From NCBI RefSeq assembly GCF_003334405.1, contig NZ_QOWM01000001.1: 64,000 nucleotides of DNA, one strand, 5' to 3'. Positions 22,403-52,884 of this stretch are shown here, piece by piece. The notes under the pieces were generated by a model. It saw only the letters and a program-made list of their open reading frames with translations, ran no database searches and was not told where the DNA came from. Made by a program: the position numbers and the translations under genes. Numbering within the stretch: the stretch's first letter is position 1; each line of letters begins with the position of its first letter. The stretch comes from Escherichia coli. Its GTDB lineage: Bacteria; Pseudomonadota; Gammaproteobacteria; Enterobacterales; Enterobacteriaceae.

Positions 22403-22738
22403 ATGGATAAAGAACGCATCATTCAGGAATTTGTGCCCGGCAAACAGGTCACACTGGCGCATCTCATCGCGCATCCCGGTGAGGAACTGGCGAAGAAAAT
22501 CGGCGTTCCGGATGCGGGCGCAATTGGCATTATGACGCTAACTCCCGGCGAAACGGCGATGATCGCCGGTGATTTAGCGCTGAAAGCCGCTGATGTGCAT
22601 ATCGGTTTTCTCGACCGATTCAGCGGTGCATTGGTGATTTATGGCTCGGTGGGCGCAGTAGAAGAAGCGTTATCACAAACCGTCAGCGGTTTAGGTCGCT
22701 TATTAAATTATACGCTTTGTGAAATGACCAAAAGTTAA
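22403..22738 (+). CDS. eutS: Ethanolamine-utilisation microcompartment shell protein EutS
   Basis: 111-aa product [21 protein letters not shown]...; ATG at 22403, the ORF-track start being an upstream extension. Confidence 0.9.
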
Positions 22739-22750
22739 TACGAGGCATTC

Positions 22751-23906: not shown

Positions 23907-24706
23907 AAGATTTCATCACCGAAGCATGGCTAAGAGCGAACCATACGCTCAGCGAAGGCGCAGAGATCCATCTCCCTGCGGACAGTCGCCTGACGCCCTC
24001 TGCCCGGGAGTTGCTGGAAAGCCGCCATCTGCGCATCAAGTTTATTGACGAGCAGGGCCGCCTGTTTGTTGACGATGAACAGCAGCAGCCGCAGCCCGTT
24101 CATGGGCTGACCAGTAGCGATGAACATCCGCAGGCGTGCTGCGAACTGTGTCGCCAGCCGGTGGCAAAAAAGCCGGATACGCTGACTCACCTGTCGGCGG
24201 AAAAAATGGTCGCCAAAAGCGATCCGCGTCTGGGTTTTCGCGCGGTTCTCGACAGCACCATTGCGCTGGCAGTGTGGCTGCAAATTGAACTGGCGGAACC
24301 GTGGCAGCCGTGGCTGGCGGATATCCGTTCGCGTCTTGGCAACATTATGCGCGCCGATGCGCTGGGGGAACCGCTGGGCTGCCAGGCGATTGTCGGGCTT
24401 TCTGACGAAGATCTGCATCGGCTTTCTCATCAGCCGCTGCGCTATCTCGACCACGATCATCTGGTGCCGGAAGCCAGCCACGGGCGCGATGCTGCGTTGC
24501 TCAATCTGCTACGCACCAAAGTGCGGGAAACCGAAACCGTAGCGGCGCAGGTCTTTATCACCCGCAGCTTTGAAGTATTACGCCCGGACATTTTGCAGGC
24601 GCTGAACCGCCTTTCGAGCACGGTCTACGTGATGATGATCCTGAGCGTAACGAAGCAGCCGCTAACGGTGAAGCAGATCCAACAACGACTGGGGGAAACG
24701 CAATGA
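23903..24706 (+). CDS. eutT: Cobalamin adenosyltransferase EutT
   Basis: 267-aa ORF; its start overlaps the eutQ stop (ATGA). Confidence 0.9.
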
Positions 24707-25719
24707 TTATTGAACGTTGTCGTGAACTGGCGTTGCGAGCGCCCGCCAGAGTGGTTTTTCCGGATGCGTTAGACCAACGTGTGCTGAAAGCCGCGCAATA
24801 TTTACATCAACAAGGTCTGGCAACGCCCATTCTGGTCGCCAATCCGTTTGAACTTCGTCAGTTTGCGCTCAGTCACGGCGTGGCGATGGACGGGCTACAG
24901 GTGATTGATCCGCATGGCAACCTCGCAATGCGGGAAGAATTTGCTCATCGCTGGCTGGCCCGCGCGGGCGAAAAAACGCCGCCGGATGCGCTGGAAAAAC
25001 TTACCGACCCTCTGATGTTCGCCGCAGCAATGGTCAGCGCCGGTAAAGCGGATGTCTGTATCGCGGGCAACCTCTCTTCCACGGCAAATGTGCTGCGTGC
25101 CGGATTACGCATTATCGGCTTGCAGCCAGGCTGTAAAACGCTCTCTTCCATTTTCCTGATGTTGCCACAGTACAGCGGCCCGGCGTTGGGCTTTGCCGAT
25201 TGCAGCGTGGTGCCACAGCCGACGGCGGCGCAGCTGGCGGATATCGCGCTTGCCAGTGCCGAAACCTGGCGCGCCATCACCGGAGAAGAGCCGCGCGTGG
25301 CGATGCTGTCGTTTTCCAGCAATGGTAGCGCCCGTCACCCCTGTGTTGCTAACGTCCAGCAGGCGACAGAAATCGTCCGTGAGCGCGCACCAAAGCTGGT
25401 GGTGGATGGCGAGTTACAGTTTGACGCCGCCTTCGTGCCGGAAGTGGCGGCGCAAAAAGCGCCTGCCAGCCCGCTACAGGGCAAGGCCAATGTGATGGTT
25501 TTTCCGTCGCTGGAAGCCGGAAATATTGGTTACAAAATCGCACAACGACTCGGCGGATATCGTGCCGTCGGGCCACTGATACAAGGACTTGCCGCGCCGA
25601 TGCACGATCTCTCTCGTGGTTGTAGCGTGCAGGAAATTATCGAGCTGGCGCTGGTGGCAGCTGTGCCGCGTCAGACAGAAGTGAACCGCGAAAGCAGTTT
25701 ACAAACACTGGTTGAATGA
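24703..25719 (+). CDS. eutD: Phosphotransacetylase EutD
   Basis: 338-aa PTA-family ORF; its start overlaps the eutT stop. Confidence 0.9.
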
Positions 25720-25757
25720 ACGGTCCCGTTCTGGACCCTGATAAAGAGGAAAGCACA

Positions 25758-26051
25758 ATGGAAGCATTAGGAATGATCGAAACCCGGGGCCTGGTTGCAC
25801 TGATTGAGGCTTCTGACGCGATGGTGAAAGCTGCGCGCGTCAAGCTGGTTGGTGTTAAGCAGATTGGCGGCGGCCTGTGTACTGCCATGGTTCGTGGTGA
25901 TGTTGCAGCCTGTAAAGCCGCGACCGATGCAGGTGCCGCAGCGGCACAGCGTATCGGCGAGCTGGTATCTGTACACGTTATCCCGCGTCCGCACGGCGAC
26001 CTGGAAGAAGTCTTCCCGATCGGCCTGAAAGGCGATAGCAGCAACCTGTAA
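25758..26051 (+). CDS. eutM: Microcompartment shell protein EutM
   Basis: BMC-domain product [28 protein letters not shown]...; start set at the internal ATG. Confidence 0.9.
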
Positions 26052-26157
26052 TCACCCTGTGTGACGTCGATTCGGGCGTCACGCTCTCTCCTTTTTCATT
26101 TTACCTTCTGCGGAGGGTAGGGGGAGCTTTTACCTGAAATACGCCACGGAGGCGGGT

Positions 26158-26445
26158 ATGAAACTGGCAGTCGTCACTGGACAAATTGTTTGTACCGTAC
26201 GCCATCACGGACTGGCGCATGACAAATTGCTGATGGTGGAAATGATTGATCCACAAGGTAATCCTGACGGGCAATGCGCCGTCGCCATCGACAATATTGG
26301 CGCGGGAACCGGGGAGTGGGTGTTACTGGTGAGTGGCAGTTCCGCCCGCCAGGCGCATAAAAGCGAAACGTCACCGGTCGATCTGTGCGTGATTGGCATT
26401 GTCGATGAGGTGGTGTCTGGCGGTCAGGTAATTTTCCACAAATAA
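26158..26445 (+). CDS. eutN: Microcompartment vertex protein EutN
   Basis: 95-aa product MKLAVVTGQIVCTVRHHGL... (EutN/CcmL family). Confidence 0.9.
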   Translation: MKLAVVTGQIVCTVRHHGLAHDKLLMVEMIDPQGNPDGQCAVAIDNIGAGTGEWVLLVSGSSARQAHKSETSPVDLCVIGIVDEVVSGGQVIFHK

Positions 26446-26456
26446 GGCAGAACATC

Positions 26457-27860
26457 ATGAATCAACAGGATATTGAACAGGTGGTGAAAGCGGTACTGCT
26501 GAAAATGCAAAGCAGTGACACGCCGTCCGCCGCCGTTCATGAGATGGGCGTTTTCGCGTCCCTGGATGACGCCGTTGCGGCAGCCAAAGTCGCCCAGCAA
26601 GGGTTAAAAAGCGTGGCAATGCGCCAGTTAGCCATTGCTGCCATTCGTGAAGCAGGCGAAAAACACGCCAGAGATTTAGCGGAACTTGCCGTCAGTGAAA
26701 CCGGCATGGGGCGCGTTGAAGATAAATTTGCAAAAAACGTCGCTCAGGCGCGCGGCACACCAGGCGTTGAGTGCCTCTCTCCGCAAGTGCTGACTGGCGA
26801 CAACGGCCTGACCCTAATTGAAAACGCACCCTGGGGCGTGGTGGCTTCGGTGACGCCTTCCACTAACCCGGCGGCAACCGTAATTAACAACGCCATCAGC
26901 CTGATTGCCGCGGGCAACAGCGTCATTTTTGCCCCGCATCCGGCGGCGAAAAAAGTCTCCCAGCGGGCGATTACGCTGCTCAACCAGGCGATTGTTGCCG
27001 CAGGTGGGCCGGAAAACTTACTGGTTACTGTGGCAAATCCGGATATCGAAACCGCGCAACGCTTGTTCAAGTTTCCGGGTATCGGCCTGCTGGTGGTAAC
27101 CGGCGGCGAAGCGGTAGTAGAAGCGGCGCGTAAACACACCAATAAACGTCTGATTGCCGCAGGCGCTGGCAACCCGCCGGTAGTGGTGGATGAAACCGCC
27201 GACCTCGCCCGTGCCGCTCAGTCCATCGTCAAAGGCGCTTCTTTCGATAACAACATCATTTGTGCCGACGAAAAGGTACTGATTGTTGTTGATAGCGTAG
27301 CCGATGAACTGATGCGTCTGATGGAAGGCCAGCACGCGGTGAAACTGACCGCAGAACAGGCGCAGCAGCTGCAACCGGTGTTGCTGAAAAATATCGACGA
27401 GCGCGGAAAAGGCACCGTCAGCCGTGACTGGGTTGGTCGCGACGCAGGCAAAATCGCGGCGGCAATCGGCCTTAAAGTTCCGCAAGAAACGCGCCTGCTG
27501 TTTGTGGAAACCACCGCAGAACATCCGTTTGCCGTGACTGAACTGATGATGCCGGTGTTGCCCGTCGTGCGCGTCGCCAACGTGGCGGATGCCATTGCGC
27601 TAGCGGTGAAACTGGAAGGCGGTTGCCACCACACGGCGGCAATGCACTCGCGCAACATCGAAAACATGAACCAGATGGCGAATGCTATTGATACCAGCAT
27701 TTTCGTTAAGAACGGACCGTGCATTGCCGGGCTGGGGCTGGGCGGGGAAGGCTGGACCACCATGACCATCACCACGCCAACCGGTGAAGGGGTAACCAGC
27801 GCGCGTACGTTTGTCCGTCTGCGTCGCTGTGTATTAGTCGATGCGTTTCGCATTGTTTAA
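26457..27860 (+). CDS. eutE: CoA-acylating acetaldehyde dehydrogenase EutE
   Basis: 467-aa aldehyde dehydrogenase-family ORF. Confidence 0.95.
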   Translation: MNQQDIEQVVKAVLLKMQSSDTPSAAVHEMGVFASLDDAVAAAKVAQQGLKSVAMRQLAIAAIREAGEKHARDLAELAVSETGMGRVEDKFAKNVAQARGTPGVECLSPQVLTGDNGLTLIENAPWGVVASVTPSTNPAATVINNAISLIAAGNSVIFAPHPAAKKVSQRAITLLNQAIVAAGGPENLLVTVANPDIETAQRLFKFPGIGLLVVTGGEAVVEAARKHTNKRLIAAGAGNPPVVVDETADLARAAQSIVKGASFDNNIICADEKVLIVVDSVADELMRLMEGQHAVKLTAEQAQQLQPVLLKNIDERGKGTVSRDWVGRDAGKIAAAIGLKVPQETRLLFVETTAEHPFAVTELMMPVLPVVRVANVADAIALAVKLEGGCHHTAAMHSRNIENMNQMANAIDTSIFVKNGPCIAGLGLGGEGWTTMTITTPTGEGVTSARTFVRLRRCVLVDAFRIV

Positions 27861-27870
27861 GGAGTAACAG

Positions 27871-28707
27871 ATGGCGCACGACGAACAATGGCTCACCCCA
27901 CGTCTGCAAACGGCGGCAACGCTGTGTAACCAGACGCCCGCCGCGACGGAATCTCCGCTGTGGCTGGGGGTGGATCTGGGCACCTGCGATGTGGTGTCGA
28001 TGGTTGTCGACCGCGACGGTCAGCCAGTGGCGGTATGCCTCGACTGGGCCGATGTGGTTCGCGACGGCATCGTCTGGGATTTCTTCGGCGCTGTCACCAT
28101 TGTTCGTCGCCATCTCGACACGCTCGAGCAGCAATTCGGTCGTCGTTTTAGCCATGCGGCGACTTCATTTCCTCCAGGTACGGACCCGCGTATTTCCATC
28201 AACGTGCTGGAATCTGCCGGACTGGAAGTGAGCCATGTGCTGGATGAGCCAACCGCAGTTGCGGATCTGCTGCAACTGGACAACGCCGGTGTAGTGGATA
28301 TCGGCGGCGGCACTACCGGCATTGCCATCGTGAAAAAGGGCAAGGTGACGTACTCGGCGGATGAAGCCACCGGCGGACATCACATCTCTCTGACTCTCGC
28401 CGGAAATCGCCGTATTTCGCTGGAAGAGGCGGAGCAGTACAAGCGCGGTCACGGTGAAGAGATTTGGCCTGCGGTGAAACCGGTGTACGAAAAAATGGCG
28501 GACATTGTCGCCCGGCATATTGAAGGGCAGGGCATTACTGATTTATGGCTGGCGGGCGGCTCTTGTATGCAACCGGGCGTGGCGGAACTGTTTCGCAAAC
28601 AATTCCCGGCGTTACAGGTGCATTTACCGCAGCACAGTTTGTTTATGACCCCGCTGGCGATCGCCAGTAGTGGGCGAGAGAAAGCGGAGGGGCTATATGC
28701 AAAATGA
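27871..28707 (+). CDS. eutJ: Actin/Hsp70-fold chaperone-like protein EutJ
   Basis: 278-aa ORF with DLGT and GGGTTG ATPase motifs. Confidence 0.9.
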   Translation: MAHDEQWLTPRLQTAATLCNQTPAATESPLWLGVDLGTCDVVSMVVDRDGQPVAVCLDWADVVRDGIVWDFFGAVTIVRRHLDTLEQQFGRRFSHAATSFPPGTDPRISINVLESAGLEVSHVLDEPTAVADLLQLDNAGVVDIGGGTTGIAIVKKGKVTYSADEATGGHHISLTLAGNRRISLEEAEQYKRGHGEEIWPAVKPVYEKMADIVARHIEGQGITDLWLAGGSCMQPGVAELFRKQFPALQVHLPQHSLFMTPLAIASSGREKAEGLYAK

Positions 28708-29884
28708 ATTGCAGACCGCGCTCTTTCAGGCGTTCGATACCCTGAATCTGCAACGGGTAAAAACATTTAGCGTTCCACCGGTGACGCTTTGCGGTCCGGG
28801 CTCGGTGAGCAGTTGCGGACAGCAAGCGCAAACGCGTGGGCTGAAACATCTGTTCGTGATGGCAGACAGCTTTTTGCATCAGGCAGGGATGACCGCCGGG
28901 CTGACGCGTAGCCTGACCGTTAAAGGTATCGCCATGACGCTCTGGCCATGTCCGGTGGGCGAACCGTGCATTACCGACGTGTGTGCAGCCGTGGCGCAGT
29001 TGCGTGAGTCAGGCTGTGATGGGGTGATCGCGTTTGGCGGCGGCTCGGTGCTGGATGCGGCGAAAGCCGTGACGTTGCTGGTGACGAACCCGGATAGCAC
29101 GCTGGCAGAGATGTCAGAAACCAGCGTTCTGCAACCGCGCTTGCCGCTGATTGCCATTCCAACTACCGCCGGAACCGGCTCTGAAACCACCAATGTAACG
29201 GTGATTATCGACGCGGTGAGCGGGCGCAAGCAGGTGTTAGCCCATGCCTCGCTGATGCCGGATGTGGCGATCCTCGACGCCGCATTGACCGAAGGTGTGC
29301 CGTCGCATGTCACGGCGATGACCGGCATTGATGCGTTAACCCATGCCATTGAAGCATACAGCGCCCTGAACGCTACACCGTTTACCGACAGTCTGGCGAT
29401 TGGTGCCATTGCGATGATTGGCAAATCGCTGCCGAAAGCGGTGGGCTACGGTCACGACCTTGCCGCGCGCGAGAGCATGTTGCTGGCTTCATGTATGGCG
29501 GGAATGGCGTTTTCCAGTGCGGGTCTTGGGTTGTGCCACGCGATGGCGCATCAGCCGGGCGCGGCGCTGCATATTCCGCACGGTCTCGCGAACGCCATGT
29601 TGCTGCCAACGGTGATGGAATTTAACCGGATGGTTTGTCGTGAACGCTTTAGTCAGATTGGTCGGGCACTGCGAACTAAAAAATCCGACGATCGTGACGC
29701 TATTAACGCGGTAAGTGAGCTGATTGCGGAAGTTGGGATTGGTAAACGACTGGGCGATGTTGGTGCGACATCTGCGCATTACGGCGCATGGGCGCAGGCC
29801 GCGCTGGAAGATATTTGTCTGCGCAGTAACCCGCGTACCGCCAGCCTGGAGCAGATTGTCGGCCTGTACGCAGCGGCGCAATAA
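28697..29884 (+). CDS. eutG: Iron-containing alcohol dehydrogenase EutG
   Basis: Product MQNELQTALFQAFDTLNLQ...; ATG at 28697 overlapping the eutJ 3' end. Confidence 0.9.
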   Translation: MQNELQTALFQAFDTLNLQRVKTFSVPPVTLCGPGSVSSCGQQAQTRGLKHLFVMADSFLHQAGMTAGLTRSLTVKGIAMTLWPCPVGEPCITDVCAAVAQLRESGCDGVIAFGGGSVLDAAKAVTLLVTNPDSTLAEMSETSVLQPRLPLIAIPTTAGTGSETTNVTVIIDAVSGRKQVLAHASLMPDVAILDAALTEGVPSHVTAMTGIDALTHAIEAYSALNATPFTDSLAIGAIAMIGKSLPKAVGYGHDLAARESMLLASCMAGMAFSSAGLGLCHAMAHQPGAALHIPHGLANAMLLPTVMEFNRMVCRERFSQIGRALRTKKSDDRDAINAVSELIAEVGIGKRLGDVGATSAHYGAWAQAALEDICLRSNPRTASLEQIVGLYAAAQ

Positions 29885-29886
29885 AT

Positions 29887-30070
<184 letters not shown>

Positions 30071-30100
30071 ATAAATAACAACTAACAGGGAGTAAAGGCG

Positions 30101-31327
30101 ATGGGAATTAACGAAATCATCATGTACATCATGATGTTCTTTATGCTGATAGCTGCCGTAGACAGGATCCTGTCGCAGTTCGGCGGTTCTGCTCGTTTCC
30201 TCGGTAAGTTCGGTAAAAGTATCGAAGGATCAGGCGGTCAGTTCGAAGAAGGCTTTATGGCAATGGGCGCACTGGGCCTGGCGATGGTCGGTATGACCGC
30301 GCTGGCACCGGTACTGGCTCACGTTCTCGGGCCGGTAATTATTCCGGTTTACGAAATGCTCGGCGCTAACCCATCGATGTTCGCCGGAACACTGCTGGCG
30401 TGCGATATGGGCGGCTTCTTCCTCGCCAAAGAGCTGGCGGGCGGCGACGTAGCCGCGTGGCTATACTCTGGGTTAATTCTCGGGTCGATGATGGGGCCAA
30501 CGATTGTGTTTTCCATTCCGGTGGCGCTCGGCATTATCGAACCTTCTGACCGTCGTTATCTGGCGCTCGGCGTGCTGGCGGGCATTGTGACCATTCCGAT
30601 TGGTTGTATCGCTGGTGGTCTGGTTGCTATGTACTCCGGTGTGCAGATCAACGGCCAGCCGGTGGAATTCACTTTCGCCCTGATCCTGATGAACATGATC
30701 CCGGTGATCATTGTTGCGATTCTGGTGGCGCTGGGGCTGAAATTCATCCCGGAAAAAATGATCAACGGCTTCCAGATCTTCGCCAAATTCCTCGTTGCAT
30801 TGATCACCCTCGGTCTTGCCGCTGCGGTAGTGAAATTCCTGCTTGGCTGGGAACTGATCCCCGGTCTGGATCCTATCTTTATGGCCCCTGGCGATAAACC
30901 CGGTGAGGTGATGCGCGCCATTGAAGTTATCGGTTCTATCTCCTGCGTTCTGTTAGGGGCGTATCCGATGGTGCTGCTGCTGACTCGCTGGTTTGAAAAA
31001 CCGCTGATGAGCGTCGGTAAAGTACTGAATATGAACAACATCGCGGCAGCCGGCATGGTGGCAACGCTTGCCAACAACATCCCGATGTTCGGCATGATGA
31101 AGCAGATGGATACCCGCGGCAAAGTCATCAACTGCGCCTTCGCCGTTTCCGCTGCTTTCGCCCTAGGCGACCACTTAGGCTTCGCCGCTGCCAACATGAA
31201 CGCCATGATCTTCCCGATGATTGTCGGCAAGTTGATCGGCGGCGTAACGGCGATTGGCGTGGCGATGATGCTGGTGCCAAAAGAAGACGCGACCGCGACT
31301 AAAACCGAAGCGGAGGCACAATCGTGA
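30101..31327 (+). CDS. eutH: Ethanolamine permease EutH
   Basis: 408-aa polytopic membrane protein. Confidence 0.9.
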   Translation: MGINEIIMYIMMFFMLIAAVDRILSQFGGSARFLGKFGKSIEGSGGQFEEGFMAMGALGLAMVGMTALAPVLAHVLGPVIIPVYEMLGANPSMFAGTLLACDMGGFFLAKELAGGDVAAWLYSGLILGSMMGPTIVFSIPVALGIIEPSDRRYLALGVLAGIVTIPIGCIAGGLVAMYSGVQINGQPVEFTFALILMNMIPVIIVAILVALGLKFIPEKMINGFQIFAKFLVALITLGLAAAVVKFLLGWELIPGLDPIFMAPGDKPGEVMRAIEVIGSISCVLLGAYPMVLLLTRWFEKPLMSVGKVLNMNNIAAAGMVATLANNIPMFGMMKQMDTRGKVINCAFAVSAAFALGDHLGFAAANMNAMIFPMIVGKLIGGVTAIGVAMMLVPKEDATATKTEAEAQS

Positions 31328-32727
31328 ACACTCGCCAGCTATTGAGCGTCGGTATCGATATCGGCACCACCACCACCCAGGTGATTTTCTCCCGGCTGGA
31401 GCTGGTTAACCGTGCGGCGGTGTCGCAGGTGCCGCGCTACGAATTCATTAAACGCGAAATTAGCTGGCAAAGTCCGGTGTTCTTTACCCCTGTCGATAAA
31501 CAGGGCGGTTTAAAAGAAGCGGAACTGAAAACCTTAATACTCGAGCAATATCATGCTGCGGGTATTGAGCCGGAAAGCGTTGATTCTGGTGCCATCATCA
31601 TCACCGGTGAAAGCGCGAAAACCCGCAATGCTCGCCCGGCGGTGATGGCGCTCTCTCAGTCGCTGGGCGATTTTGTCGTTGCCAGCGCCGGGCCGCACCT
31701 CGAATCCGTGATCGCCGGTCACGGAGCCGGGGCACAAACCCTTTCTGAACAACGGCTGTGTCGGGTACTGAATATCGACATCGGCGGTGGCACCGCGAAC
31801 TACGCCCTGTTCGATGCCGGAAAAATCAGCGGCACTGCCTGCCTCAACGTCGGTGGTCGCCTGCTGGAAACCGACAGCCACGGGCGCGTGGTTTACGCTC
31901 ATAAACCGGGGCAGATGATTGTGGATGAGTGCTTCGGTGCAGGCACCGACGCCCGTTCGCTGACCGGCGCGCAGCTGGTGCAGGTGACCCGGCGGATGGC
32001 AGAACTGATTGTCGAAGTGATTGACGGAACGCTCTCACCGCTCGCGCAGGCATTGATGCAAACCGGTTTGCTGCCCGCAGGTGTTACGCCCGAAATCATT
32101 ACGCTTTCTGGCGGCGTGGGCGAATGTTATCGCCACCAGCCCGCCGACCCGTTCTGTTTTGCCGATATTGGCCCGCTGCTGGCAACTGCGCTGCATGACC
32201 ATCCGCGCCTGCGTGAGATGAACGTACAGTTTCCGGCGCAAACCGTGCGCGCCACGGTGATTGGCGCGGGCGCGCATACCCTTTCGCTCTCTGGCAGCAC
32301 AATCTGGCTTGAGGGCGTACAACTGCCGCTGCGCAATTTGCCGGTGGCGATCCCGATTGATGAAACGGATCTGGTGGGGGCCTGGCAACAGGCGCTGATT
32401 CAGCTGGATCTTGATCCCAAAACTGACGCGTACGTGCTGGCGCTTCCCGCCTCGCTGCCTGTGCGTTACGCCGCGGTACTGACGGTCATCAACGCGTTGG
32501 TCGATTTCGTCGCGCGTTTTCCGAATCCGCATCCCCTGCTGGTGGTGGCCGGGCAGGACTTTGGTAAAGCTCTGGGCATGTTGTTGCGCCCACAGCTACA
32601 ACAACTCCCGTTGGCAGTCATTGACGAAGTGATTGTCCGCGCGGGGGACTATATCGACATTGGTACGCCTCTTTTTGGCGGATCGGTTGTGCCGGTGACG
32701 GTGAAATCACTCGCATTTCCTTCCTGA
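31324..32727 (+). CDS. eutA: Ethanolamine ammonia-lyase reactivase EutA
   Basis: 467-aa ORF with a GTG start overlapping the eutH stop; product MNTRQLLSVGIDIGTTTTQ... Confidence 0.9.
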   Translation: MNTRQLLSVGIDIGTTTTQVIFSRLELVNRAAVSQVPRYEFIKREISWQSPVFFTPVDKQGGLKEAELKTLILEQYHAAGIEPESVDSGAIIITGESAKTRNARPAVMALSQSLGDFVVASAGPHLESVIAGHGAGAQTLSEQRLCRVLNIDIGGGTANYALFDAGKISGTACLNVGGRLLETDSHGRVVYAHKPGQMIVDECFGAGTDARSLTGAQLVQVTRRMAELIVEVIDGTLSPLAQALMQTGLLPAGVTPEIITLSGGVGECYRHQPADPFCFADIGPLLATALHDHPRLREMNVQFPAQTVRATVIGAGAHTLSLSGSTIWLEGVQLPLRNLPVAIPIDETDLVGAWQQALIQLDLDPKTDAYVLALPASLPVRYAAVLTVINALVDFVARFPNPHPLLVVAGQDFGKALGMLLRPQLQQLPLAVIDEVIVRAGDYIDIGTPLFGGSVVPVTVKSLAFPS

Positions 32728-32738
32728 GGGAACGACTT

Positions 32739-34100
32739 ATGAAACTAAAGACCACATTGTTCGGCAATGTATATCAGTTTAAGGATGTAAAAGAGGTGCT
32801 GGCTAAAGCCAACGAACTGCGTTCGGGGGATGTGCTGGCGGGCGTCGCAGCGGCAAGCTCACAGGAGCGCGTGGCGGCAAAGCAGGTGTTGTCGGAAATG
32901 ACCGTAGCGGACATCCGCAATAATCCGGTGATTGCCTATGAAGATGACTGCGTGACGCGGCTGATTCAGGACGATGTTAACGAAACGGCCTACAACCAGA
33001 TTAAAAACTGGAGCATCAGCGAACTGCGTGAGTATGTGCTGAGCGATGAAACCAGCGTGGACGACATTGCCTTTACCCGCAAAGGGCTGACCTCGGAAGT
33101 GGTCGCGGCGGTAGCGAAGATTTGCTCCAACGCGGACCTGATCTACGGCGCGAAGAAAATGCCGGTAATCAAAAAGGCCAATACCACCATCGGTATTCCG
33201 GGCACCTTTAGCGCCCGTTTGCAGCCAAATGACACCCGTGACGACGTGCAAAGTATCGCCGCGCAAATCTACGAAGGGCTTTCCTTCGGGGTGGGCGATG
33301 CGGTGATCGGCGTTAACCCGGTGACTGACGACGTGGAAAACTTAAGCCGCGTGTTGGATACCATCTATGGCGTGATCGACAAATTCAACATCCCAACTCA
33401 GGGCTGTGTACTGGCGCACGTCACCACCCAGATCGAAGCGATCCGTCGTGGCGCACCGGGCGGGCTGATTTTCCAGAGTATCTGTGGCAGCGAAAAAGGG
33501 CTGAAAGAGTTTGGCGTGGAGCTGGCGATGCTCGACGAAGCGCGCGCAGTGGGCGCGGAGTTCAACCGTATCGCCGGGGAAAACTGCCTCTACTTCGAAA
33601 CCGGACAAGGCTCTGCGCTATCCGCTGGCGCTAACTTCGGCGCAGACCAGGTAACGATGGAAGCACGTAACTACGGGCTGGCGCGTCATTACGATCCGTT
33701 TATCGTCAACACCGTGGTCGGCTTTATTGGGCCGGAGTATCTCTACAACGACCGCCAGATTATCCGTGCTGGCTTAGAAGATCACTTTATGGGCAAGCTG
33801 AGCGGCATCTCTATGGGCTGTGACTGCTGTTATACCAACCACGCTGACGCTGACCAGAACCTCAACGAAAACCTGATGATCCTGCTCGCCACCGCAGGCT
33901 GCAACTACATCATGGGGATGCCGCTGGGTGATGACATCATGCTCAACTACCAGACCACCGCATTCCACGATACCGCCACTGTGCGTCAGTTACTCAACCT
34001 GCGCCCGTCACCGGAGTTTGAACGCTGGCTGGAAAGCATGGGCATTATGGCAAACGGTCGCCTGACCAAACGGGCGGGCGATCCGTCACTGTTCTTCTGA
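32739..34100 (+). CDS. eutB: Ethanolamine ammonia-lyase large subunit EutB
   Basis: 453-aa ORF starting 11 bp after the eutA stop, with no intervening insertion. Confidence 0.95.
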   Translation: MKLKTTLFGNVYQFKDVKEVLAKANELRSGDVLAGVAAASSQERVAAKQVLSEMTVADIRNNPVIAYEDDCVTRLIQDDVNETAYNQIKNWSISELREYVLSDETSVDDIAFTRKGLTSEVVAAVAKICSNADLIYGAKKMPVIKKANTTIGIPGTFSARLQPNDTRDDVQSIAAQIYEGLSFGVGDAVIGVNPVTDDVENLSRVLDTIYGVIDKFNIPTQGCVLAHVTTQIEAIRRGAPGGLIFQSICGSEKGLKEFGVELAMLDEARAVGAEFNRIAGENCLYFETGQGSALSAGANFGADQVTMEARNYGLARHYDPFIVNTVVGFIGPEYLYNDRQIIRAGLEDHFMGKLSGISMGCDCCYTNHADADQNLNENLMILLATAGCNYIMGMPLGDDIMLNYQTTAFHDTATVRQLLNLRPSPEFERWLESMGIMANGRLTKRAGDPSLFF

Positions 34101-34120
34101 TGACGCGGAGATAACATATC

Positions 34121-35008
34121 ATGGATCAAAAACAGATTGAAGAAATTGTACGCAGCGTGATGGCGTCAATGGGACAAGCGGCCCCCGCGCCGTCAGAAGC
34201 AAAGTGCGCCACCACCAACTGTGCGGCACCGGTGACCTCGGAAAGCTGTGCGCTGGATTTAGGTTCCGCTGAAGCAAAAGCGTGGATTGGTGTTGAAAAT
34301 CCGCATCGCGCAGACGTATTAACAAAACTGCGCCGCAGCACCGTGGCCCGCGTTTGTACCGGTCGTGCCGGTCCGCGTCCACGTACGCAGGCGCTGCTGC
34401 GTTTCCTGGCCGATCACTCTCGTTCGAAAGATACCGTACTGAAAGAAGTGCCGGAAGAGTGGGTGAAAGCGCAGGGCTTGCTGGAAGTACGCTCTGAAAT
34501 TAGCGACAAAAATCTCTACCTGACTCGCCCGGATATGGGCCGCCGCCTGTGTGCAGAAGCTGTTGAAGCGCTGAAAGCGCAGTGTGTTGCCAATCCGGAC
34601 GTACAGGTCGTTATTTCTGATGGCCTGTCAACTGATGCGATCACCGTGAACTACGAAGAGATCCTGCCACCGCTGATGGCGGGCCTGAAACAGGCCGGGC
34701 TGAAAGTCGGTACACCATTCTTTGTTCGTTATGGTCGCGTGAAGATTGAAGATCAGATCGGTGAGATCCTCGGCGCGAAAGTAGTGATCCTGCTGGTGGG
34801 CGAACGTCCGGGGTTGGGTCAGTCAGAAAGCCTCTCCTGCTACGCCGTTTACTCGCCGCGTATGGCGACCACCGTTGAGGCCGATCGCACCTGTATCTCT
34901 AACATTCACCAGGGCGGCACGCCGCCGGTTGAAGCCGCAGCCGTCATTGTGGATTTGGCGAAACGTATGCTGGAGCAGAAAGCATCCGGCATCAACATGA
35001 CCCGATAA
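34121..35008 (+). CDS. eutC: Ethanolamine ammonia-lyase small subunit EutC
   Basis: 295-aa ORF. Confidence 0.95.
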
Positions 35009-35017
35009 GGAGGCATC

Positions 35018-35677
35018 ATGCCAGCTTTAGATTTGATTCGACCGTCTGTCACCGCTATGCGGGTGATTGCCTCCGTTAACGCCGATTTTGCGCGTGAACT
35101 GAAATTGCCGCCGCATATTCGTAGCCTCGGTCTGATTTCTGCCGACTCCGATGACGTCACCTACATTGCCGCTGATGAAGCGACCAAGCAGGCGATGGTG
35201 GAAGTGGTGTATGGCCGCTCGCTATATGCGGGCGCTGCACACGGCCCGTCACCGACTGCCGGTGAAGTGCTGATTATGCTTGGTGGGCCAAACCCGGCGG
35301 AAGTGCGTGCAGGTCTGGATGCGATGATTGCGCATATTGAAAATGGCGCAGCTTTCCAGTGGGCTAATGACGCGCAAGATACGGCATTCCTGGCACATGT
35401 AGTTTCGCGTACCGGTTCTTATCTCTCATCAACCGCCGGGATCACGCTTGGCGATCCGATGGCGTATCTGGTGGCACCGCCGCTGGAAGCGACCTATGGC
35501 ATTGATGCAGCCCTGAAGTCTGCCGACGTACAGCTGGCGACCTATGTCCCGCCACCGTCTGAAACCAACTACTCGGCAGCATTTTTAACCGGTAGCCAGG
35601 CAGCGTGTAAAGCAGCCTGTAACGCCTTTACCGATGCAGTGCTGGAAATCGCGCGTAATCCAATCCAGCGTGCGTAA
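35018..35677 (+). CDS. eutL: Microcompartment shell protein EutL
   Basis: 219-aa tandem-BMC-domain ORF. Confidence 0.9.
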
Positions 35678-35689
35678 CGGAGGTTGCCG

Positions 35690-36190
35690 ATGATCAATGC
35701 ACTGGGATTGCTGGAAGTGGACGGCATGGTCGCCGCGATAGATGCAGCGGATGCCATGCTCAAAGCAGCTAACGTTCGTCTGCTCAGTCACGAAGTGCTT
35801 GACCCTGGTCGCTTAACGCTGGTGGTGGAAGGCGATCTGGCGGCGTGTCGTGCGGCGCTGGACGCAGGTTGTGCTGCCGCGATGCGTACCGGGCGTGTCA
35901 TCAGCCGCAAGGAGATCGGTCGGCCAGACGATGACACCCAGTGGCTGGTTACTGGCTTTAACCGCCAGCCGAAGCAACCCGTAAGGGAACCCGACGCGCC
36001 AGTTATCGTCGCGGAATCTGCTGACGAGTTGTTGGCGCTGTTAACATCAGTACGTCAGGGAATGACGGCAGGAGAAGTGGCTGCCCACTTTGGCTGGCCG
36101 CTGGAAAAAGCCAGAAATGCGCTCGAACAGCTCTTTTCTGCCGGGACGTTACGTAAACGCAGTAGTCGTTATCGTCTCAAGCCCCATTAA
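35690..36190 (+). CDS. eutK: Microcompartment shell protein EutK
   Basis: BMC domain followed by a C-terminal basic/helix-turn-helix-like tail; ATG at 35690 preceded by ggagg, the ORF-track start being an upstream TTG. Confidence 0.85.
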   Translation: MINALGLLEVDGMVAAIDAADAMLKAANVRLLSHEVLDPGRLTLVVEGDLAACRAALDAGCAAAMRTGRVISRKEIGRPDDDTQWLVTGFNRQPKQPVREPDAPVIVAESADELLALLTSVRQGMTAGEVAAHFGWPLEKARNALEQLFSAGTLRKRSSRYRLKPH

Positions 36191-36235
36191 CCTGTCGGAG
36201 GTGCCGGGTGTCCTACAACACCCGGCATTAACATC

Positions 36236-37288
36236 ATGAAAAAGACCCGTACAGCCAATTTGCACCATCTTTATCATGAACCCTTACCCGAAAACCTGAA
36301 GCTCACGCCGAAGGTCGAAGTGGATAATGTTCATCAACGACAGACAACGGATGTCTATGAACATGCTTTAACGATTACCGCCTGGCAGCAGATTTACGAT
36401 CAGCTGCATCCGGGCAAGTTTCATGGTGAATTTACGGAAATTCTACTCGATGATATTCAGGTTTTTCGTGAATACACCGGTCTGGCGCTGCGTCAGTCGT
36501 GCCTGGTCTGGCCGAACTCGTTCTGGTTTGGCATTCCGGCGACGCGCGGTGAGCAGGGATTTATCGGTTCGCAATGTCTGGGAAGCGCGGAAATCGCCAC
36601 CCGCCCTGGTGGCACTGAATTTGAACTGAGCACGCCGGATGATTACACGATCCTGGGCGTGGTGCTTTCTGAAGATGTCATCACCCGGCAGGCTAACTTT
36701 TTGCATAACCCGGATCGGGTATTACATATGTTGCGTAACCAGTCGGCGCTGGAAGTGAAAGAGCAGCATAAAGCCGCGCTGTGGGGCTTTGTCCAACAGG
36801 CGCTGGCGACGTTTTGCGAGAATCCGGAAAATCTCCATCAGCCTGCAGTGCGAAAAGTGCTGGGGGATAATTTGCTAATGGCGATGGGGGCCATGCTGGA
36901 AGAAGCGCAACCAATGGTGACGGCGGAAAGCATCAGTCATCAGAGTTACCGTCGATTGCTTTCCCGCGCCCGTGAATATGTGCTGGAAAACATGTCCGAA
37001 CCGGTGACGGTGCTGGATTTGTGTAATCAACTGCATGTCAGCCGCCGCACGCTACAAAACGCGTTTCACGCTATTTTAGGCATTGGCCCGAACGCGTGGC
37101 TGAAACGCATTCGCCTGAACGCCGTACGCCGCGAACTGATAAGTCCGTGGTCGCAAAGTATGACGGTAAAAGACGCCGCCATGCAGTGGGGATTCTGGCA
37201 TCTGGGGCAATTTGCCACGGATTACCAGCAGCTGTTTTCCGAGAAGCCGTCACTGACGCTGCATCAGCGGATGCGGGAGTGGGGGTGA
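36236..37288 (+). CDS. eutR: AraC-family transcriptional activator EutR
   Basis: 350-aa ORF with a C-terminal AraC-type HTH region; a GC hairpin (36204-36225) lies between eutK and eutR. Confidence 0.9.
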
Positions 37289-37293
37289 GGGAG

Positions 37294-38196
<903 letters not shown>

Positions 38197-39066
38197 TTAT
38201 CGCTTTTTCGAATGTGCTTTCTGGTTGTCGAACCAGTGGAAATAACTGATCACGCCTTCAGCAATCGCTGTGGCGATTTTCTGACGAAACGCCGCCGTGC
38301 CTAACAGCCGTTCTTCTTCCGGGTTGGTGATAAACGAGGTTTCCACCAGCACCGAAGGAACCGACGGTGATTTCAACACCACAAATGCCGCTTGTTCGGT
38401 GTTGCGGCTGTGCAGTTTATGCACCGGCTTAATCTTCTTCAGAATATGCGAGCCGAGCGTCAGACTATTTTTAATGGTATCTGTTTGCACCAGATCAAAC
38501 AGCACTTGTTGCAATAGGTGATCCTTGTCAGTCGCCTTTTTACCGGCAACTTCATCGGCGCGGTTTTCGCGTTCAGACAGGTATTTCGCCATTGCGCTAC
38601 TTGCCCCACGGTTAGAGAGGGCAAATACCGAAGCACCGGCAGCTTTCGGGTTGGTAAAGCCATCGGCATGAATTGACATAAACAGATCTGCGCCATGTTT
38701 ATGGGCGATTTCAACGCGATCGTAAAGTGGGATAAACGTATCGCCAGAACGCGTTAAACGCGCATCAATCCCATGATTACGCAAAATGGAACGGACGTTT
38801 TTAGCAATCGCCAGCACCACATGTTTTTCTTTCGAACCGTTGCGTCCGATCGCTCCGGTATCAATTCCGCCGTGACCTGGATCGAGAACAACGACACGTT
38901 TGCCGCCAGATTTTTTGGCTTTCGGCTTGCTGTGTCCGTTGCTGGTTTTTAAAAGTTCGTCTTTGGCGATGGCTTGCGACATTCCTGACAACGTCAGGGC
39001 AGCCAAACCGGCTTTCAGCACCTGGCGGCGCGAAGTGAGTGTTTTTAGTGGTTTAAAAGTGCTCAT
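38197..39066 (-). CDS. amiA: N-acetylmuramoyl-L-alanine amidase AmiA
   Basis: 289-aa ORF with a twin-arginine signal (SRRQVLKAG); 3 bp upstream of hemF. Confidence 0.95.
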   Translation of the reverse strand: MSTFKPLKTLTSRRQVLKAGLAALTLSGMSQAIAKDELLKTSNGHSKPKAKKSGGKRVVVLDPGHGGIDTGAIGRNGSKEKHVVLAIAKNVRSILRNHGIDARLTRSGDTFIPLYDRVEIAHKHGADLFMSIHADGFTNPKAAGASVFALSNRGASSAMAKYLSERENRADEVAGKKATDKDHLLQQVLFDLVQTDTIKNSLTLGSHILKKIKPVHKLHSRNTEQAAFVVLKSPSVPSVLVETSFITNPEEERLLGTAAFRQKIATAIAEGVISYFHWFDNQKAHSKKR

Positions 39067-39279
39067 ACGGCCTGAGTTGTAATAATAAAGTTCCAGATGT
39101 TATATCGTATCGCGTAATCCGTTACGACGGTTTGCTGTTGAGAATTGTTTTACTTTTCATTTCAATAGTTGACAACTCCCCATTATGCCACTTTTTCAAC
39201 CGATTTTCGTCAGATATTGGCTAATTCGACCGTTCACGCCATAATCAGCCTTTTAACCCGCAAAAAGGTAACGAATACC

Positions 39280-39705
39280 ATGGAGATACGCGTATTTCGC
39301 CAGGAAGATTTCGAAGAGGTCATCACCCTTTGGGAGCGTTGCGACTTGCTGCGTCCGTGGAACGATCCGGAAATGGACATCGAGCGTAAGATGAACCATG
39401 ACGTCAGTTTGTTTTTGGTCGCTGAGGTAAACGGTGACGTGGTCGGAACGGTGATGGGCGGTTATGACGGGCATCGCGGGTCTGCTTATTATCTTGGCGT
39501 GCATCCAGAGTTTCGTGGGCGTGGGATTGCCAATGCGTTGCTTAATCGGCTGGAGAAAAAGCTGATTGCTCGTGGCTGCCCGAAAATTCAGATCAATGTG
39601 CCGGAAGATAACGACATGGTGCTCGGAATGTATGAACGCCTGGGATATGAACACGCCGACGTGCTGAGTCTGGGTAAGCGTTTGATTGAAGATGAAGAGT
39701 ACTGA
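39280..39705 (+). CDS. ypeA: GNAT-family acetyltransferase YpeA
   Basis: 141-aa product [24 protein letters not shown]...; start set at the ATG matching the known N-terminus. Confidence 0.85.
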
Positions 39706-40141
39706 GTTTCATCCTGTCCATTATGATGCGCACGGTCGCCTGCGTTTACCCTTGCTCTTCTGGCTTGTGCTATTGCTTCAGGCGCGAACCTGGGTGCTGT
39801 TTGTCATTGCCGGTGCGTCGCGCGAGCAGGGTACTGCGCTGCTAAATCTGTTTTATCCCGATCACGATAATTTCTGGCTGGGGCTGATTCCTGGCATTCC
39901 GGCGGTGCTGGCGTTTTTGTTGAGCGGTCGGCGGGCTACGTTTCCTCGCACCTGGCGTGTACTCTATTTTCTGTTGCTGTTGGCGCAGGTGGTTTTACTT
40001 TGCTGGCAACCGTGGCTGTGGCTGAACGGTGAATCCGTTAGCGGTATCGGTCTGGCGCTGGTAGTGGCGGATATTGTGGCGTTAATCTGGCTGCTGACCA
40101 ATCGACGTTTACGCGCTTGTTTTAATGAAGTAAAAGAATAA
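39692..40141 (+). CDS. yfeZ: Inner membrane protein YfeZ
   Basis: 149-aa hydrophobic product [17 protein letters not shown]...; overlaps the ypeA 3' end. Confidence 0.8.
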
Positions 40142-40142
40142 C

Positions 40143-40170
40143 GGCACTTTTTGGTGAATTTGCACTCCAA
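40143..40170 (+). promoter_or_regulatory. Candidate sigma-E-type promoter upstream of yfeY
   Basis: GGCACTT, a 16-nt spacer, then TCCAA resembles the sigma-E consensus GGAACTT-N16-TCAAA; about 30 bp upstream of yfeY. Confidence 0.3.
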
Positions 40171-40201
40171 GCAACGTTATTGAATAACCAAAGGAAGTGA
40201 C

Positions 40202-40777
40202 ATGAAATCGCTGCGTTTAATGTTATGCGCTATGCCATTGATGCTGACCGGCTGTTCCACGATGTCGTCAGTTAACTGGTCTGCCGCTAACCCGTGGAAC
40301 TGGTTTGGGTCGTCCACCAAAGTGAGCGAGCAGGGCGTGGGTGAATTAACGGCGTCCACACCACTGCAAGAACAAGCCATTGCCGATGCGCTTGATGGCG
40401 ATTATCGCCTGCGCAGCGGAATGAAAACCGCGAACGGCAACGTGGTGCGCTTTTTTGAAGTGATGAAGGGCGACAACGTGGCGATGGTGATTAACGGCGA
40501 TCAAGGCACGATCAGTCGCATTGACGTGCTGGATAGCGATATTCCTGCTGACACCGGTGTTAAAATCGGTACACCGTTTAGCGACCTTTACAGCAAAGCA
40601 TTTGGCAATTGCCAAAAAGCTGATGGTGATGATAATCGTGCCGTCGAATGTAAAGCCGAAGGCAGTCAACATATTAGCTACCAGTTCAGCGGGGAATGGC
40701 GTGGTCCTGAAGGGTTAATGCCTTCGGACGATACCCTGAAAAACTGGAAAGTCAGTAAAATTATCTGGCGGCGTTAA
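40202..40777 (+). CDS. yfeY: Lipoprotein YfeY
   Basis: 191-aa ORF with a signal peptide and lipobox (LTGC). Confidence 0.8.
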   Translation: MKSLRLMLCAMPLMLTGCSTMSSVNWSAANPWNWFGSSTKVSEQGVGELTASTPLQEQAIADALDGDYRLRSGMKTANGNVVRFFEVMKGDNVAMVINGDQGTISRIDVLDSDIPADTGVKIGTPFSDLYSKAFGNCQKADGDDNRAVECKAEGSQHISYQFSGEWRGPEGLMPSDDTLKNWKVSKIIWRR

Positions 40778-40788
40778 TTTGCGTCTGA

Positions 40789-41772
<984 letters not shown>

Positions 41773-41795
41773 GCGTTTCTGATTCATTGATTAAA

Positions 41796-41823
41796 GGCCA
41801 GGCAGTAACATTACTGACTGGCC
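41796..41823. terminator. Hairpin downstream of yfeX (copy A of a duplicated 28-nt element)
   Basis: ggccaggcagtaacattactgactggcc forms a stem-loop (ccag..cagtaa / ttactg..ctgg); no clean T-run on the plus strand. Confidence 0.4.
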
Positions 41824-41827
41824 TCAG

Positions 41828-41975
41828 ATTGTTGACCAAGTGCGCGTTGTACACGCCGGATGCGGCGTGAACGCCTTATCCGGCCTACGAAATCGTGCTA
41901 ATTCAATATATTGTGGGCTCCACGTAGGCCTGATAAGCGTAGCGCATCAGGCAGTTTTGCGTTTGTCAGCACTCT
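41828..41975. repeat. REP/BIME cluster
   Basis: gccggatgcggcgtgaacgccttatccggcctac and gtaggcctgataagcgtagcgcatcaggc around an attcaatatattg spacer motif. Confidence 0.7.
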
Positions 41976-41978
41976 CAG

Positions 41979-42010
41979 ACCAGCCAGTAACATTACTGAC
42001 TGGCCTTTTT
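41979..42010. terminator. Hairpin plus T-run adjacent to the yfeW stop (copy B of the duplicated 28-nt element)
   Basis: gaccagccagtaacattactgactggcc followed by ttttt; 26 of 28 nt identical to copy A. Confidence 0.5.
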
Positions 42011-42011
42011 A

Positions 42012-43316
42012 TTACTTCTGCTTTAACGCCGCATACACCTGATCAACTACCCAACCATAAGTTGCAATCGGCAACTGACCGCTTTCGAACATATTGGGAT
42101 TCTTTTGCGGATCGGCAACCGGCGAATGTGGCTTGTTGCTTAACATCACAATCGTCATATGATTCACCGGATCGATAACGGTCACCGTTCCGGTCCAGCC
42201 AGTGTGACCGTAGGTTTGCGGGCTTGCCAGCGTGCCAAACGTCGGCGTCATGGTGGCATTACCATTCACGCGCCAGCCGAGGCCAAAAGTGGCATCTTCC
42301 TTAGAGCTGGTGGTGAACATCTTCACCGTTTCCGCATTGAACAGCTGCACATCACCATAGCCCCCGCCGTTCAGCATCGTTTGCATTAACACCGCAATAT
42401 CGCCGGTATTGGAAAACAAACCTGCGTGCCCGGAAACGCCGCCCATCGAATAAAAGGCTTTTTCATCGTGCACCTGACCCCAGAGAGTGGAGGTGCGGAT
42501 ATTCGGGAAATGGATCACGCCATCGCGGGTATTGCCGTTCAATTCCGTGGCGGCAATTTGTTGCGGTTTAAAGCCTTTCAGCAGCGGGTTAAATACCGTA
42601 TGTGTCAGGCCGAGCGGGCGATAAATCGACTCTTCAACATAGCGGTCAAGCGGCTGACCGGTAACCGACTCGACGATAAATCCAAGCAGCATATAATCGA
42701 CATCGCTGTAGATATGTTTGCTGCCGGGCTGATATTCCAGCGGCGTGCGCTTGATCATCTCCAGCGTCTGGCCTTTATCCTGGGAATATAACGCGCCCGC
42801 GACCGCTTTATTCGGGTATTGCGGATCTGCCGGGAAACCGCCGCTGTGATGCAGCAGGTCAGAAATCCGCAGGGTGTTTTTGCCTTTAATGGTGTCATTT
42901 GGACTATCGGCAAACCCCGGAATATATTTCGCAATCCGATCGTCAGGATGCAGTTTGCCTTCGCTCATCAGCTTTTGCAGGGCGAAGTTCGTGGCGTACA
43001 TTTTGGTGTTTGAGGCCAGGTCATACAGCGTCCCGGTGGTGGCTTTGACAGGCTGTTCCATCAACACGCTGCCATCGTACTTTTTCGCCGCTCCCCAGGC
43101 TTTGCGATACACAATCTGATTATCTTTAATGATCAGCAGGTTTACGCTGGGATAACCGACATCAACTTGCTGGCTAATCCAGCGATCCATCTGGTTAAGC
43201 CGTTCGACGTTAAACCCTGCTTTCTCTGGCGAGCTTTCTGTCAGAACAGGGTATTTTGCGGCGCTGACGCTACAACTAACAGCCAGCAGAGAAAGATAGA
43301 GCATTGTCCGTTTCAT
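42012..43316 (-). CDS. yfeW: Penicillin-binding protein 4B-like serine hydrolase YfeW
   Basis: Product MKRTMLYLSLLAVSCSVSAAK... with a signal peptide and an S-x-x-K motif (SNTK); start set at the internal ATG. Confidence 0.85.
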   Translation of the reverse strand: MKRTMLYLSLLAVSCSVSAAKYPVLTESSPEKAGFNVERLNQMDRWISQQVDVGYPSVNLLIIKDNQIVYRKAWGAAKKYDGSVLMEQPVKATTGTLYDLASNTKMYATNFALQKLMSEGKLHPDDRIAKYIPGFADSPNDTIKGKNTLRISDLLHHSGGFPADPQYPNKAVAGALYSQDKGQTLEMIKRTPLEYQPGSKHIYSDVDYMLLGFIVESVTGQPLDRYVEESIYRPLGLTHTVFNPLLKGFKPQQIAATELNGNTRDGVIHFPNIRTSTLWGQVHDEKAFYSMGGVSGHAGLFSNTGDIAVLMQTMLNGGGYGDVQLFNAETVKMFTTSSKEDATFGLGWRVNGNATMTPTFGTLASPQTYGHTGWTGTVTVIDPVNHMTIVMLSNKPHSPVADPQKNPNMFESGQLPIATYGWVVDQVYAALKQK

Positions 43317-43320
43317 GATA

Positions 43321-44745
<1,425 letters not shown>

Positions 44746-44748
44746 GGG

Positions 44749-45645
44749 TTATTCCTTGTCTAAAACCTGACGAATAAAGCCGCCGTGTTGATCCAGGCGT
44801 TTTTTAGCTTCTGCGGCATCGAGATTTTTCAGCACCATCACAATGGCCGTTTTACAGTTGCGCTCGCAAGCAATTAACGCCGCTTCCGCTTGCTCTGCGC
44901 TACATCCGGTGGCGTTTTTAACAATATTGACCTGTCGCACATGCAGTTTTTCGTTGGTGGCGACCACATCGACCATCAGGTTGCCGAACACTTTGCCGGA
45001 TTTAATCATCAGCCCGGTGGAAAGCATATTGAGCACCAGTTTCTGCGCTGTACCTGCTTTCATCCGCGAAGAACCGGTAACAACTTCGGCACCTACAATC
45101 GGTGTAATGGCAAACTCAGCGGTGGTTGAAACGGCGCTCCCCGGATTACAGGAAATTCCCACTGTGCGGCAGCCGAGCTGGCGTGCGTATTCCAGTCCGG
45201 CAATCACATACGGCGTGCGACCGCTGGCAGCAATGCCAACCACCACATCCTGTGCCGTTAAATTAATATTTTTCAGATCATTAACACCGCCTTCCCGGCT
45301 ATCTTCCGCGCCTTCCACCGCGTGCTGAATGGCATATTCGCCGCCAGCAATCAAACCAACCACCAGACCCGGTTTCACGCCGTAGGTGGGCGGACATTCG
45401 CTGGCATCCAGAATCCCCAGACGACCGGATGTTCCCGCACCGAGGTAAATCAGACGCCCGCCGCCGCTTACCTGGGCGTGGATAACATCGATCGCCGCGG
45501 CGATATCCGGCAGTACGCGCTCAACGGCAAGCGGTACGGTTTTATCTTCATCGTTGATAATCCGGCACATTTCCAGCGTCGATACGCGGTCAATTTCAGC
45601 CGAGGCGGTGTTCGAGCCTTCAGTAATCATCTTTTCAAATTGCAT
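44749..45645 (-). CDS. murQ: N-acetylmuramic acid 6-phosphate etherase
   Basis: 298-aa SIS-domain ORF; 3 bp upstream of murP. Confidence 0.95.

Positions 45646-52785: not shown

Positions 52786-52884
<99 letters not shown>

Follow-up and report, generated by a model that had tools for sequence, protein, structure and literature searches.

The stretch of Escherichia coli DNA analysed here (the window, 64,000 nucleotides) carries the eut operon followed, tail to tail, by the genes hemF and amiA on the other strand. The last gene of the operon, eutR, and the gene hemF converge on a spacer of a few base pairs, so that the stop codons of the two genes almost touch (Table 1). Positions 37280-37299 of the window read TGGGGGTGAGGGAGTTACAC, and written out as codons the wider segment at 37268-37302 reads ...CGG ATG CGG GAG TGG GGG TGA GGGAG TTA CAC CCA..., in which the TTA at 37294-37296 is the reverse complement of the TAA stop codon of hemF. 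The EutR protein matches the NCBIfam equivalog NF007522 over the whole profile (positions 1-350 of 350; 789 bits, cut-off 319), and both HemF (NF003727, 474 bits against a cut-off of 297) and AmiA (NF007652, 578 bits against 400) are full-length equivalogs as well. Since EutR and HemF match full-length profiles, neither gene end is an artefact of annotation. The sequence-only reading had described the eutR and hemF stop codons as convergent and 5 bp apart, and the sequence at 37286-37296, the list of open reading frames, the NCBIfam matches and the RefSeq annotation all bear this out.

Table 1. Features of the eutR/hemF junction, in window coordinates.
Feature	Position	Strand	Description	Evidence
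eutR CDS	36236..37288	+	350 aa, AraC-type activator, last gene of the eut operon; stop TGA at 37286-37288	ORF list, NCBIfam, RefSeq annotation of identical DNA
hemF CDS	37294..38193	-	299 aa, oxygen-dependent coproporphyrinogen III oxidase; stop TAA at 37296->37294	ORF list, NCBIfam, annotation
amiA CDS	38197..39066	-	same strand as hemF, 3 bp upstream of hemF, operon-like spacing	ORF list, NCBIfam
Spacer GGGAG between both stop codons	37289..37293		5 bp, without terminator, palindrome or REP	
GGGGG run	37281..37285	+	last eutR codons; indel hotspot	
First 30 nt of hemF read-through RNA (CTCCCTCACCCCCACTCCCGCATCCGCTGA)	37264..37293	-	18 C, 3 G; candidate Rho loading (rut-like) tract, complementary to the last eutR codons	
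First 45 nt of eut read-through past the spacer	37294..37338	+	antisense to the hemF 3' end; 17 C, 3 G; candidate Rho loading tract	
Region homologous to the K-12 2554640 apex	36763..36807	-	weak hairpin, then T-rich run	Adams 2021 and hairpin scans

The tight junction is the normal annotated layout in E. coli and is already known. In the RefSeq annotation of K-12 MG1655 the gap is the same 5 bp (hemF at 2553225-2554124, eutR at 2554130-2555182), and RefSeq annotation gives it in other E. coli strains too. An 801-base query spanning the junction found a match in 5425 of 5426 complete E. coli genomes, and a search with allele probes of 49-50 nt, designed to make every 28-mer seed cross the terminal G-run, placed the window's 5-G junction allele in at least 5174 of the 5426. 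A miscalled ORF, with its stop or frame wrongly assigned or the end of a pseudogene taken for a real one, could in principle mimic such close spacing, and strain 720632, which is 100% identical over the junction, does have its eutR flagged as a pseudogene. That flag, however, traces to a nonsense codon at EutR residue 94 that the window lacks; both proteins fit the curated full-length profiles as far as the final residue, and their C-terminal peptides are conserved across genera. With these profile matches, the conserved C-termini and an intact eutR in the window, an artefactual or pseudogene end is rejected, and we give it practically no credence.

The 5-bp gap is real, but statistically it is not really unusual, as far as the small sample of eight convergent pairs in the 64-kb window allows (gaps of 109, 98, 94, 5, 239, 188, 42 and -4 bp, from annotated 3' ends mapped onto the window). 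The coding sequences of eutR and hemF share no nucleotides, the gap being +5 bp. A second and tighter convergent junction is found at 63474-63477, where ypeB (+) and yfeH (-) share 4 nt of their stop codons (TTAA).

No terminator was found at or near the eutR/hemF junction by any of the approaches used. A consensus terminator scan of 35500-39500 returned 4 sites against 4.9 expected from shuffled sequence, no site on either strand lying closer to the junction than about 270 nt, and a permissive scan for a hairpin with a T-tract found none within about 200 nt downstream of either stop, the nearest candidates being weak. The predicted folds of the two read-through RNAs are not significant (z -1.43 and -1.22), and a search of 37150-37450 gave no inverted repeat of at least 7 bp. 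A G+C-rich hairpin with a U-tract soon after the stop, the mark of an intrinsic (Rho-independent) terminator, is thus missing from the junction; there is no hairpin-encoding palindrome between the genes, as in an overlapping bidirectional terminator of the hairpin type reported from the Liu laboratory (bioRxiv 10.1101/2022.10.23.513370), the spacer being only 5 bp; and the window's spacer holds no REP/BIME 3' UTR element. An Rfam search of 30000-45000 placed no RNA family at the junction and gave only sub-threshold REP-related matches elsewhere, and the REP-tail motif (conserved tail ...CTTATCCGGCCTAC) is absent from every Escherichia eutR/hemF junction checked. The claim of the sequence-only reading that the genes leave no room for separate terminators therefore agrees with the scans, the folds and the inverted-repeat search alike. 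Its further claim, that the 3' UTRs must overlap, is supported by the lack of a nearby terminator and, for the hemF strand, by the published K-12 data described below. With no intrinsic terminator close to the two stops, a complete eutR or hemF mRNA must enter the opposite gene as antisense RNA, and on the sequence the overlap of the two transcripts is obligatory.

How these transcripts end is best seen on the hemF strand. In the first 30 nt of the hemF read-through RNA, C exceeds G by 15, a value at the 99.99th percentile when every 30-nt window of the 64 kb is counted on either strand, and this C-over-G skew is the most extreme among the 87 long-ORF ends of the window. The same C-rich tract is found, identical, in K-12. 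A C-rich, G-poor untranslated segment of the rut-like kind associated with Rho follows the stop codon on both strands of the junction. Rho-dependent termination of untranslated and antisense read-through was reportedly described by Peters and colleagues in 2012. For the present locus, a Rho region at K-12 2554640 on the + strand, there the strand of hemF, and antisense to eutR, is listed in supplementary file 2 of Adams et al. 2021 (eLife, PMC7815308). Without bicyclomycin, reads upstream and downstream of this position number 78 and 18, and with bicyclomycin 102 and 106, giving a Rho score of 4.5 (p = 8.9e-8; Adams et al. 2021, PMC7815308). This apex lies 516 nt beyond the hemF stop and corresponds, via the K-12 locus, to about 36778 in the window; it was derived from 800-nt windows, and so has a coarse resolution, in one data set with modest read counts from K-12 grown in LB. 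So in K-12 in LB, according to these published data, hemF transcripts run about 0.5 kb into antisense eutR and are stopped there by Rho, and under Rho inhibition they continue for at least 800 nt further. Rho-terminated antisense entries are numerous in the same table (PMC7815308). The Term-seq tables of that study have no 3'-end entry for hemF or amiA, with eutR appearing only as the single Rho-region entry, and the SMRT-Cappable-seq supplements have no entry for the junction locus.

The ends could instead be set without Rho, by cryptic hairpins in the opposite coding sequence, by an overlapping bidirectional terminator or by collision of the converging polymerases. On the hemF strand, weak hairpins with a T-rich run at 36777->36763 (tail TCTTTCACTT) and 36807->36773 do coincide with the apex of the published region, and collision-driven termination has been documented for convergent pairs (bioRxiv 10.1101/2022.10.23.513370). 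Nevertheless, the published site responds to bicyclomycin, terminator-like sites around the junction are fewer than expected by shuffling, and the junction has neither an inverted repeat nor a stable hairpin, although the bidirectional terminators that have been described encode an intergenic hairpin. Collision, moreover, can occur only when both units are transcribed, and in LB eut is not. We therefore regard intrinsic or collision-based ends as unlikely; the hairpin at 36777->36763 might be a pause site or a chance coincidence.

On the eut strand, read-through is presumed to be ended by Rho within antisense hemF. We found no published eut-strand 3'-end data for the locus, a lack explained by the silence of the eut operon in LB. 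That transcription of the operon reaches and passes the eutR stop follows from work in E. coli 536, in which lacZ placed directly after this stop serves as a transcriptional reporter of the eut operon (PMC10710832). The C skew on the eut side is common to all Escherichia lineages and to some relatives with long spacers, and so is not specific to the tight junction. The last hemF codons in Escherichia (37297-37338) are nearly free of C (GCG, TTA, AGT, AAG, AGG, GAT), whereas Citrobacter encodes a near-identical peptide, with one residue differing (K in Escherichia, Q in Citrobacter), by GCC, CTT, AGC, CAG, CGC and GAC. The 45 nt at the 3' end of hemF hold 17 G and 3 C in Escherichia versus about 13 G and 11 C in Citrobacter. 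The C-poor hemF end tracks phylogeny (Escherichia, Pseudocitrobacter, Pluralibacter) and not spacer length. The idea that C-depleted codons at the hemF 3' end are an adaptation to the tight junction was rejected, since Pseudocitrobacter with its long spacer and island-bearing Escherichia show the same depletion. The C-rich tracts are dictated in part by the codons of conserved protein ends and are shared with long-spacer relatives, and for these reasons they are not evidence of adaptation; we treat them as enabling features.

The tight junction looks different when it is set beside those of related genera. Scanning species-representative genomes for EutR yielded 63 loci, and the convergence of eutR and hemF is conserved in 34 species-level loci, covering Escherichia, Citrobacter, the Klebsiella oxytoca group, Salmonella enterica subsp. 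arizonae, Pseudocitrobacter, Pluralibacter and Intestinirhabdus. In every island-free Escherichia lineage the spacer is exactly 5 bp, with differing bases (gggag, ggtaa, ataaa) and varying stop codons. In the other genera it mostly measures 54-150 bp (as in the majority of Citrobacter, Klebsiella and Salmonella arizonae loci) and reaches 973 bp in a few; a Pluralibacter MAG has a gap of 8 bp and Intestinirhabdus one of 19 bp. The spacers of the relatives are made of REP/BIME palindromes, for example GCCGGATGCGACGC...GCGTCTTATCCGGCCTAC. Rfam naRNA4, used as a proxy for REPs in these spacers, gave one weak match only and was replaced by a direct count of the REP-tail motif, which turned up in 24 of the 27 non-Escherichia spacers of at least 54 bp and nowhere else in those loci of about 9 kb. 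Two Citrobacter loci carry REP arrays with 7 and 16 copies of the motif. The simplest reading of this sequence comparison is that the 5-bp junction reflects an Escherichia-specific loss of the REP spacer, the direction (loss here or gain elsewhere) being judged from the distribution only.

REPs are not rare in this setting. About 30% of E. coli convergent spacers hold one (207 of 704), and in convergent pairs such REPs are regarded as 3' UTR elements that work in both directions (bioRxiv 10.64898/2026.03.23.713779). Within the window, the REP-tail motif is present in four of the seven other convergent spacers (ypfH/ypfN, ypfG/tkt, yfeX/pbp4b and cysM/yfeS). REP-like palindromes, recognized as sub-threshold Rfam naRNA4/ES036 matches and REP-tail motifs, lie at 30039-30079, 41849-41931, 5218, 16494-16513 and 52802-52852, and one sub-threshold naRNA4 match falls within the eut operon itself, between eutG and eutH. 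The genome scan also turned up probable contamination: contigs of 411-457 bp with a 95-99% E. coli-like EutR in Bacillus hominis and Prolixibacteraceae assemblies, and one "Citrobacter sp." MAG with both an E. coli-type (5-bp) junction and a Citrobacter-type junction with its 54-bp REP spacer.

Within Escherichia the junction also varies. The run of five G in the last eutR codons is a site of insertion and deletion, and when one G is lost the resulting frameshift adds 7 codons to EutR (GEGVTPNP) and gives the eutR and hemF coding sequences 17 nt in common. This 4-G allele is found in 36 of the 5426 complete genomes, several of them O145 strains (e.g. O145:H28 RM13514, positions 681-710 of locus L002). 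Other genomes carry DNA between the two genes. An insert of about 1.8 kb, encoding a DUF1963 protein and a 105-aa hydrophobic protein, is present in 29 E. coli genomes including E2348/69 (locus L004, 1161-2994), and E. whittamii has a different insert with a 223-aa ORF and a pair of genes for 171-aa and 97-aa proteins (locus L009, 5060-6843). By analogy, this pair looks like a putative GNAT toxin and a TacA-like antitoxin, and one E. coli strain is annotated with such a pair at the same spot. Both forms of island have a degenerate REP-like hairpin beside eutR and the same A+T-rich flank beside hemF. The eutR/hemF junction is thus a small insertion hotspot, with islands in about 0.5% of genomes. 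The overlapping and island-bearing variants indicate that a spacing of exactly 5 bp is not strictly required.

The eut operon upstream (22403-37288) appears uninterrupted, with 17 genes from eutS to eutR in the collinear annotation. The gene ends checked, from tkt (16569) to eutR, line up between the window and strain 720632, and hence there is no net insertion over this interval. In that strain (locus L070) the nonsense codon at EutR residue 94 falls at the equivalent of window 36515-36517, and the eutR of the window is intact. K-12 differs in carrying the CPZ-55 prophage at the eutB end of its eut operon. An intZ entry at K-12 2558861, just beyond eutB, in the table of Adams 2021 (PMC7815308) is consistent with this site. 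The same source lists a very strong Term-seq 3' end antisense to eutB at K-12 2557370 (+), with a score of 20368 (Adams 2021, supplementary file 1, PMC7815308), and, beyond it, a strong Rho region at K-12 2558053 (+), with a Rho score of 23 (Adams 2021, PMC7815308). The sequence of the 2557370 3' end is conserved exactly at window 34049-34083 (- strand), at the 3' end of eutB, which suggests abundant antisense RNA within the eut operon near eutB.

Taken as a whole, we think it likely that the tail-to-tail junction of eutR and amiA-hemF is an ordinary one, without a terminator, where read-through is ended by Rho. Each full mRNA would run on past its stop codon, and its untranslated tail would be antisense to the 3' part of the other gene. 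Ribosomes would leave at the stop codon, and the C-rich, G-poor RNA that follows would then be free for Rho, which would bring transcription to an end some hundreds of nucleotides into the facing gene, as shown for the hemF strand in K-12 and as supposed for the eut strand. In Escherichia the spacer would have been lost down to 5 bp, with a few strains carrying small islands in its place. Mutual interference of the two units when eut is induced is possible, and nothing points to a regulatory device.

A regulatory role can nonetheless be imagined. In an excludon or similar antisense device, read-through from an induced eut operon could lower amiA-hemF expression, or constitutive read-through from hemF could damp eutR, in either case by collision of polymerases or by RNase III cleavage of the RNA duplex. 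Such a role would suit the unavoidable overlap of the transcripts, the extent of the hemF read-through, which spans about half of eutR in K-12, and the stability of the 5-bp spacing over Escherichia lineages whose spacer bases differ. However, the constancy of the spacing is weakened by the 1.8-kb islands (29 genomes) and the 17-nt overlap of coding sequences (36 genomes), which indicate that it is not strictly constrained; relatives keep eutR and hemF apart with REPs; and Rho limits the hemF read-through. We found no literature on cross-talk between eut and hemF, and no expression data that link eut to amiA-hemF. In addition, Conway et al. 2014 (mBio, PMC4161252) reported overlapping 3' ends for 276 of 370 convergent E. 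coli operons, which shared 286 nt on average. Overlap at the 3' end is therefore a general rule in E. coli, one which in most convergent operons has no known consequence, and overlap alone does not imply regulation. For these reasons we find a dedicated antisense device improbable at this junction.

A bolder proposal, and one we hold to be a long shot, is that loss of the REP spacer left a compact two-way Rho terminator, with the gene ends themselves encoding opposing Rho loading sites, and that strong eut transcription induced by ethanolamine and B12 drives head-on into amiA-hemF and measurably lowers oxygen-dependent haem synthesis or the expression of AmiA. If true, this would couple the use of ethanolamine to tetrapyrrole metabolism. 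The ordinary Rho-ended junction that we favour has more limited implications: it would matter only if induction of eut changed hemF or amiA expression, or if hemF read-through changed that of eutR. The annotation of the junction, read-through at convergent pairs without a terminator and its clean-up by Rho, and the Rho region antisense to eutR, which stands in a published table, are all already known. The additions made here are modest and comparative, namely the Escherichia-specific loss of the REP spacer, the overlap created by a frameshift in the G-run, and the small islands.

The eutR/hemF junction shares features with several known arrangements of convergent genes. As in the operons described by Conway et al. 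2014 (PMC4161252), convergent units read into each other and have complementary 3' ends, although the example illustrated in that study involves leakage through an intergenic terminator, while at eutR/hemF there is no terminator and the overlap is obligatory. The hemF strand resembles the Rho-dependent type of Adams 2021 (PMC7815308), with a bicyclomycin-sensitive drop in coverage antisense to eutR and C-rich, G-poor RNA after the stop, but it has no precisely mapped 3' end, and the likeness holds for this one strand only. The bidirectional terminators of Ju et al. 2019, as far as they are presented in bioRxiv 10.1101/2022.10.23.513370, likewise serve a convergent pair with a shared zone of ending; in that account, though, they have an intergenic hairpin and are described as Rho-independent, whereas eutR/hemF has no hairpin and its sole mapped region is Rho-dependent. 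Convergently overlapping genes are represented by the O145:H28 allele (17 nt) and by ypeB/yfeH (4 nt), from which the window's eutR and hemF coding sequences differ in standing 5 bp apart. Finally, with respect to REP/BIME 3' UTR elements (bioRxiv 10.64898/2026.03.23.713779), the orthologous eutR/hemF spacer in Citrobacter, Klebsiella and Salmonella arizonae has REPs, and the Escherichia junction is the minimal, REP-less form of the same arrangement.
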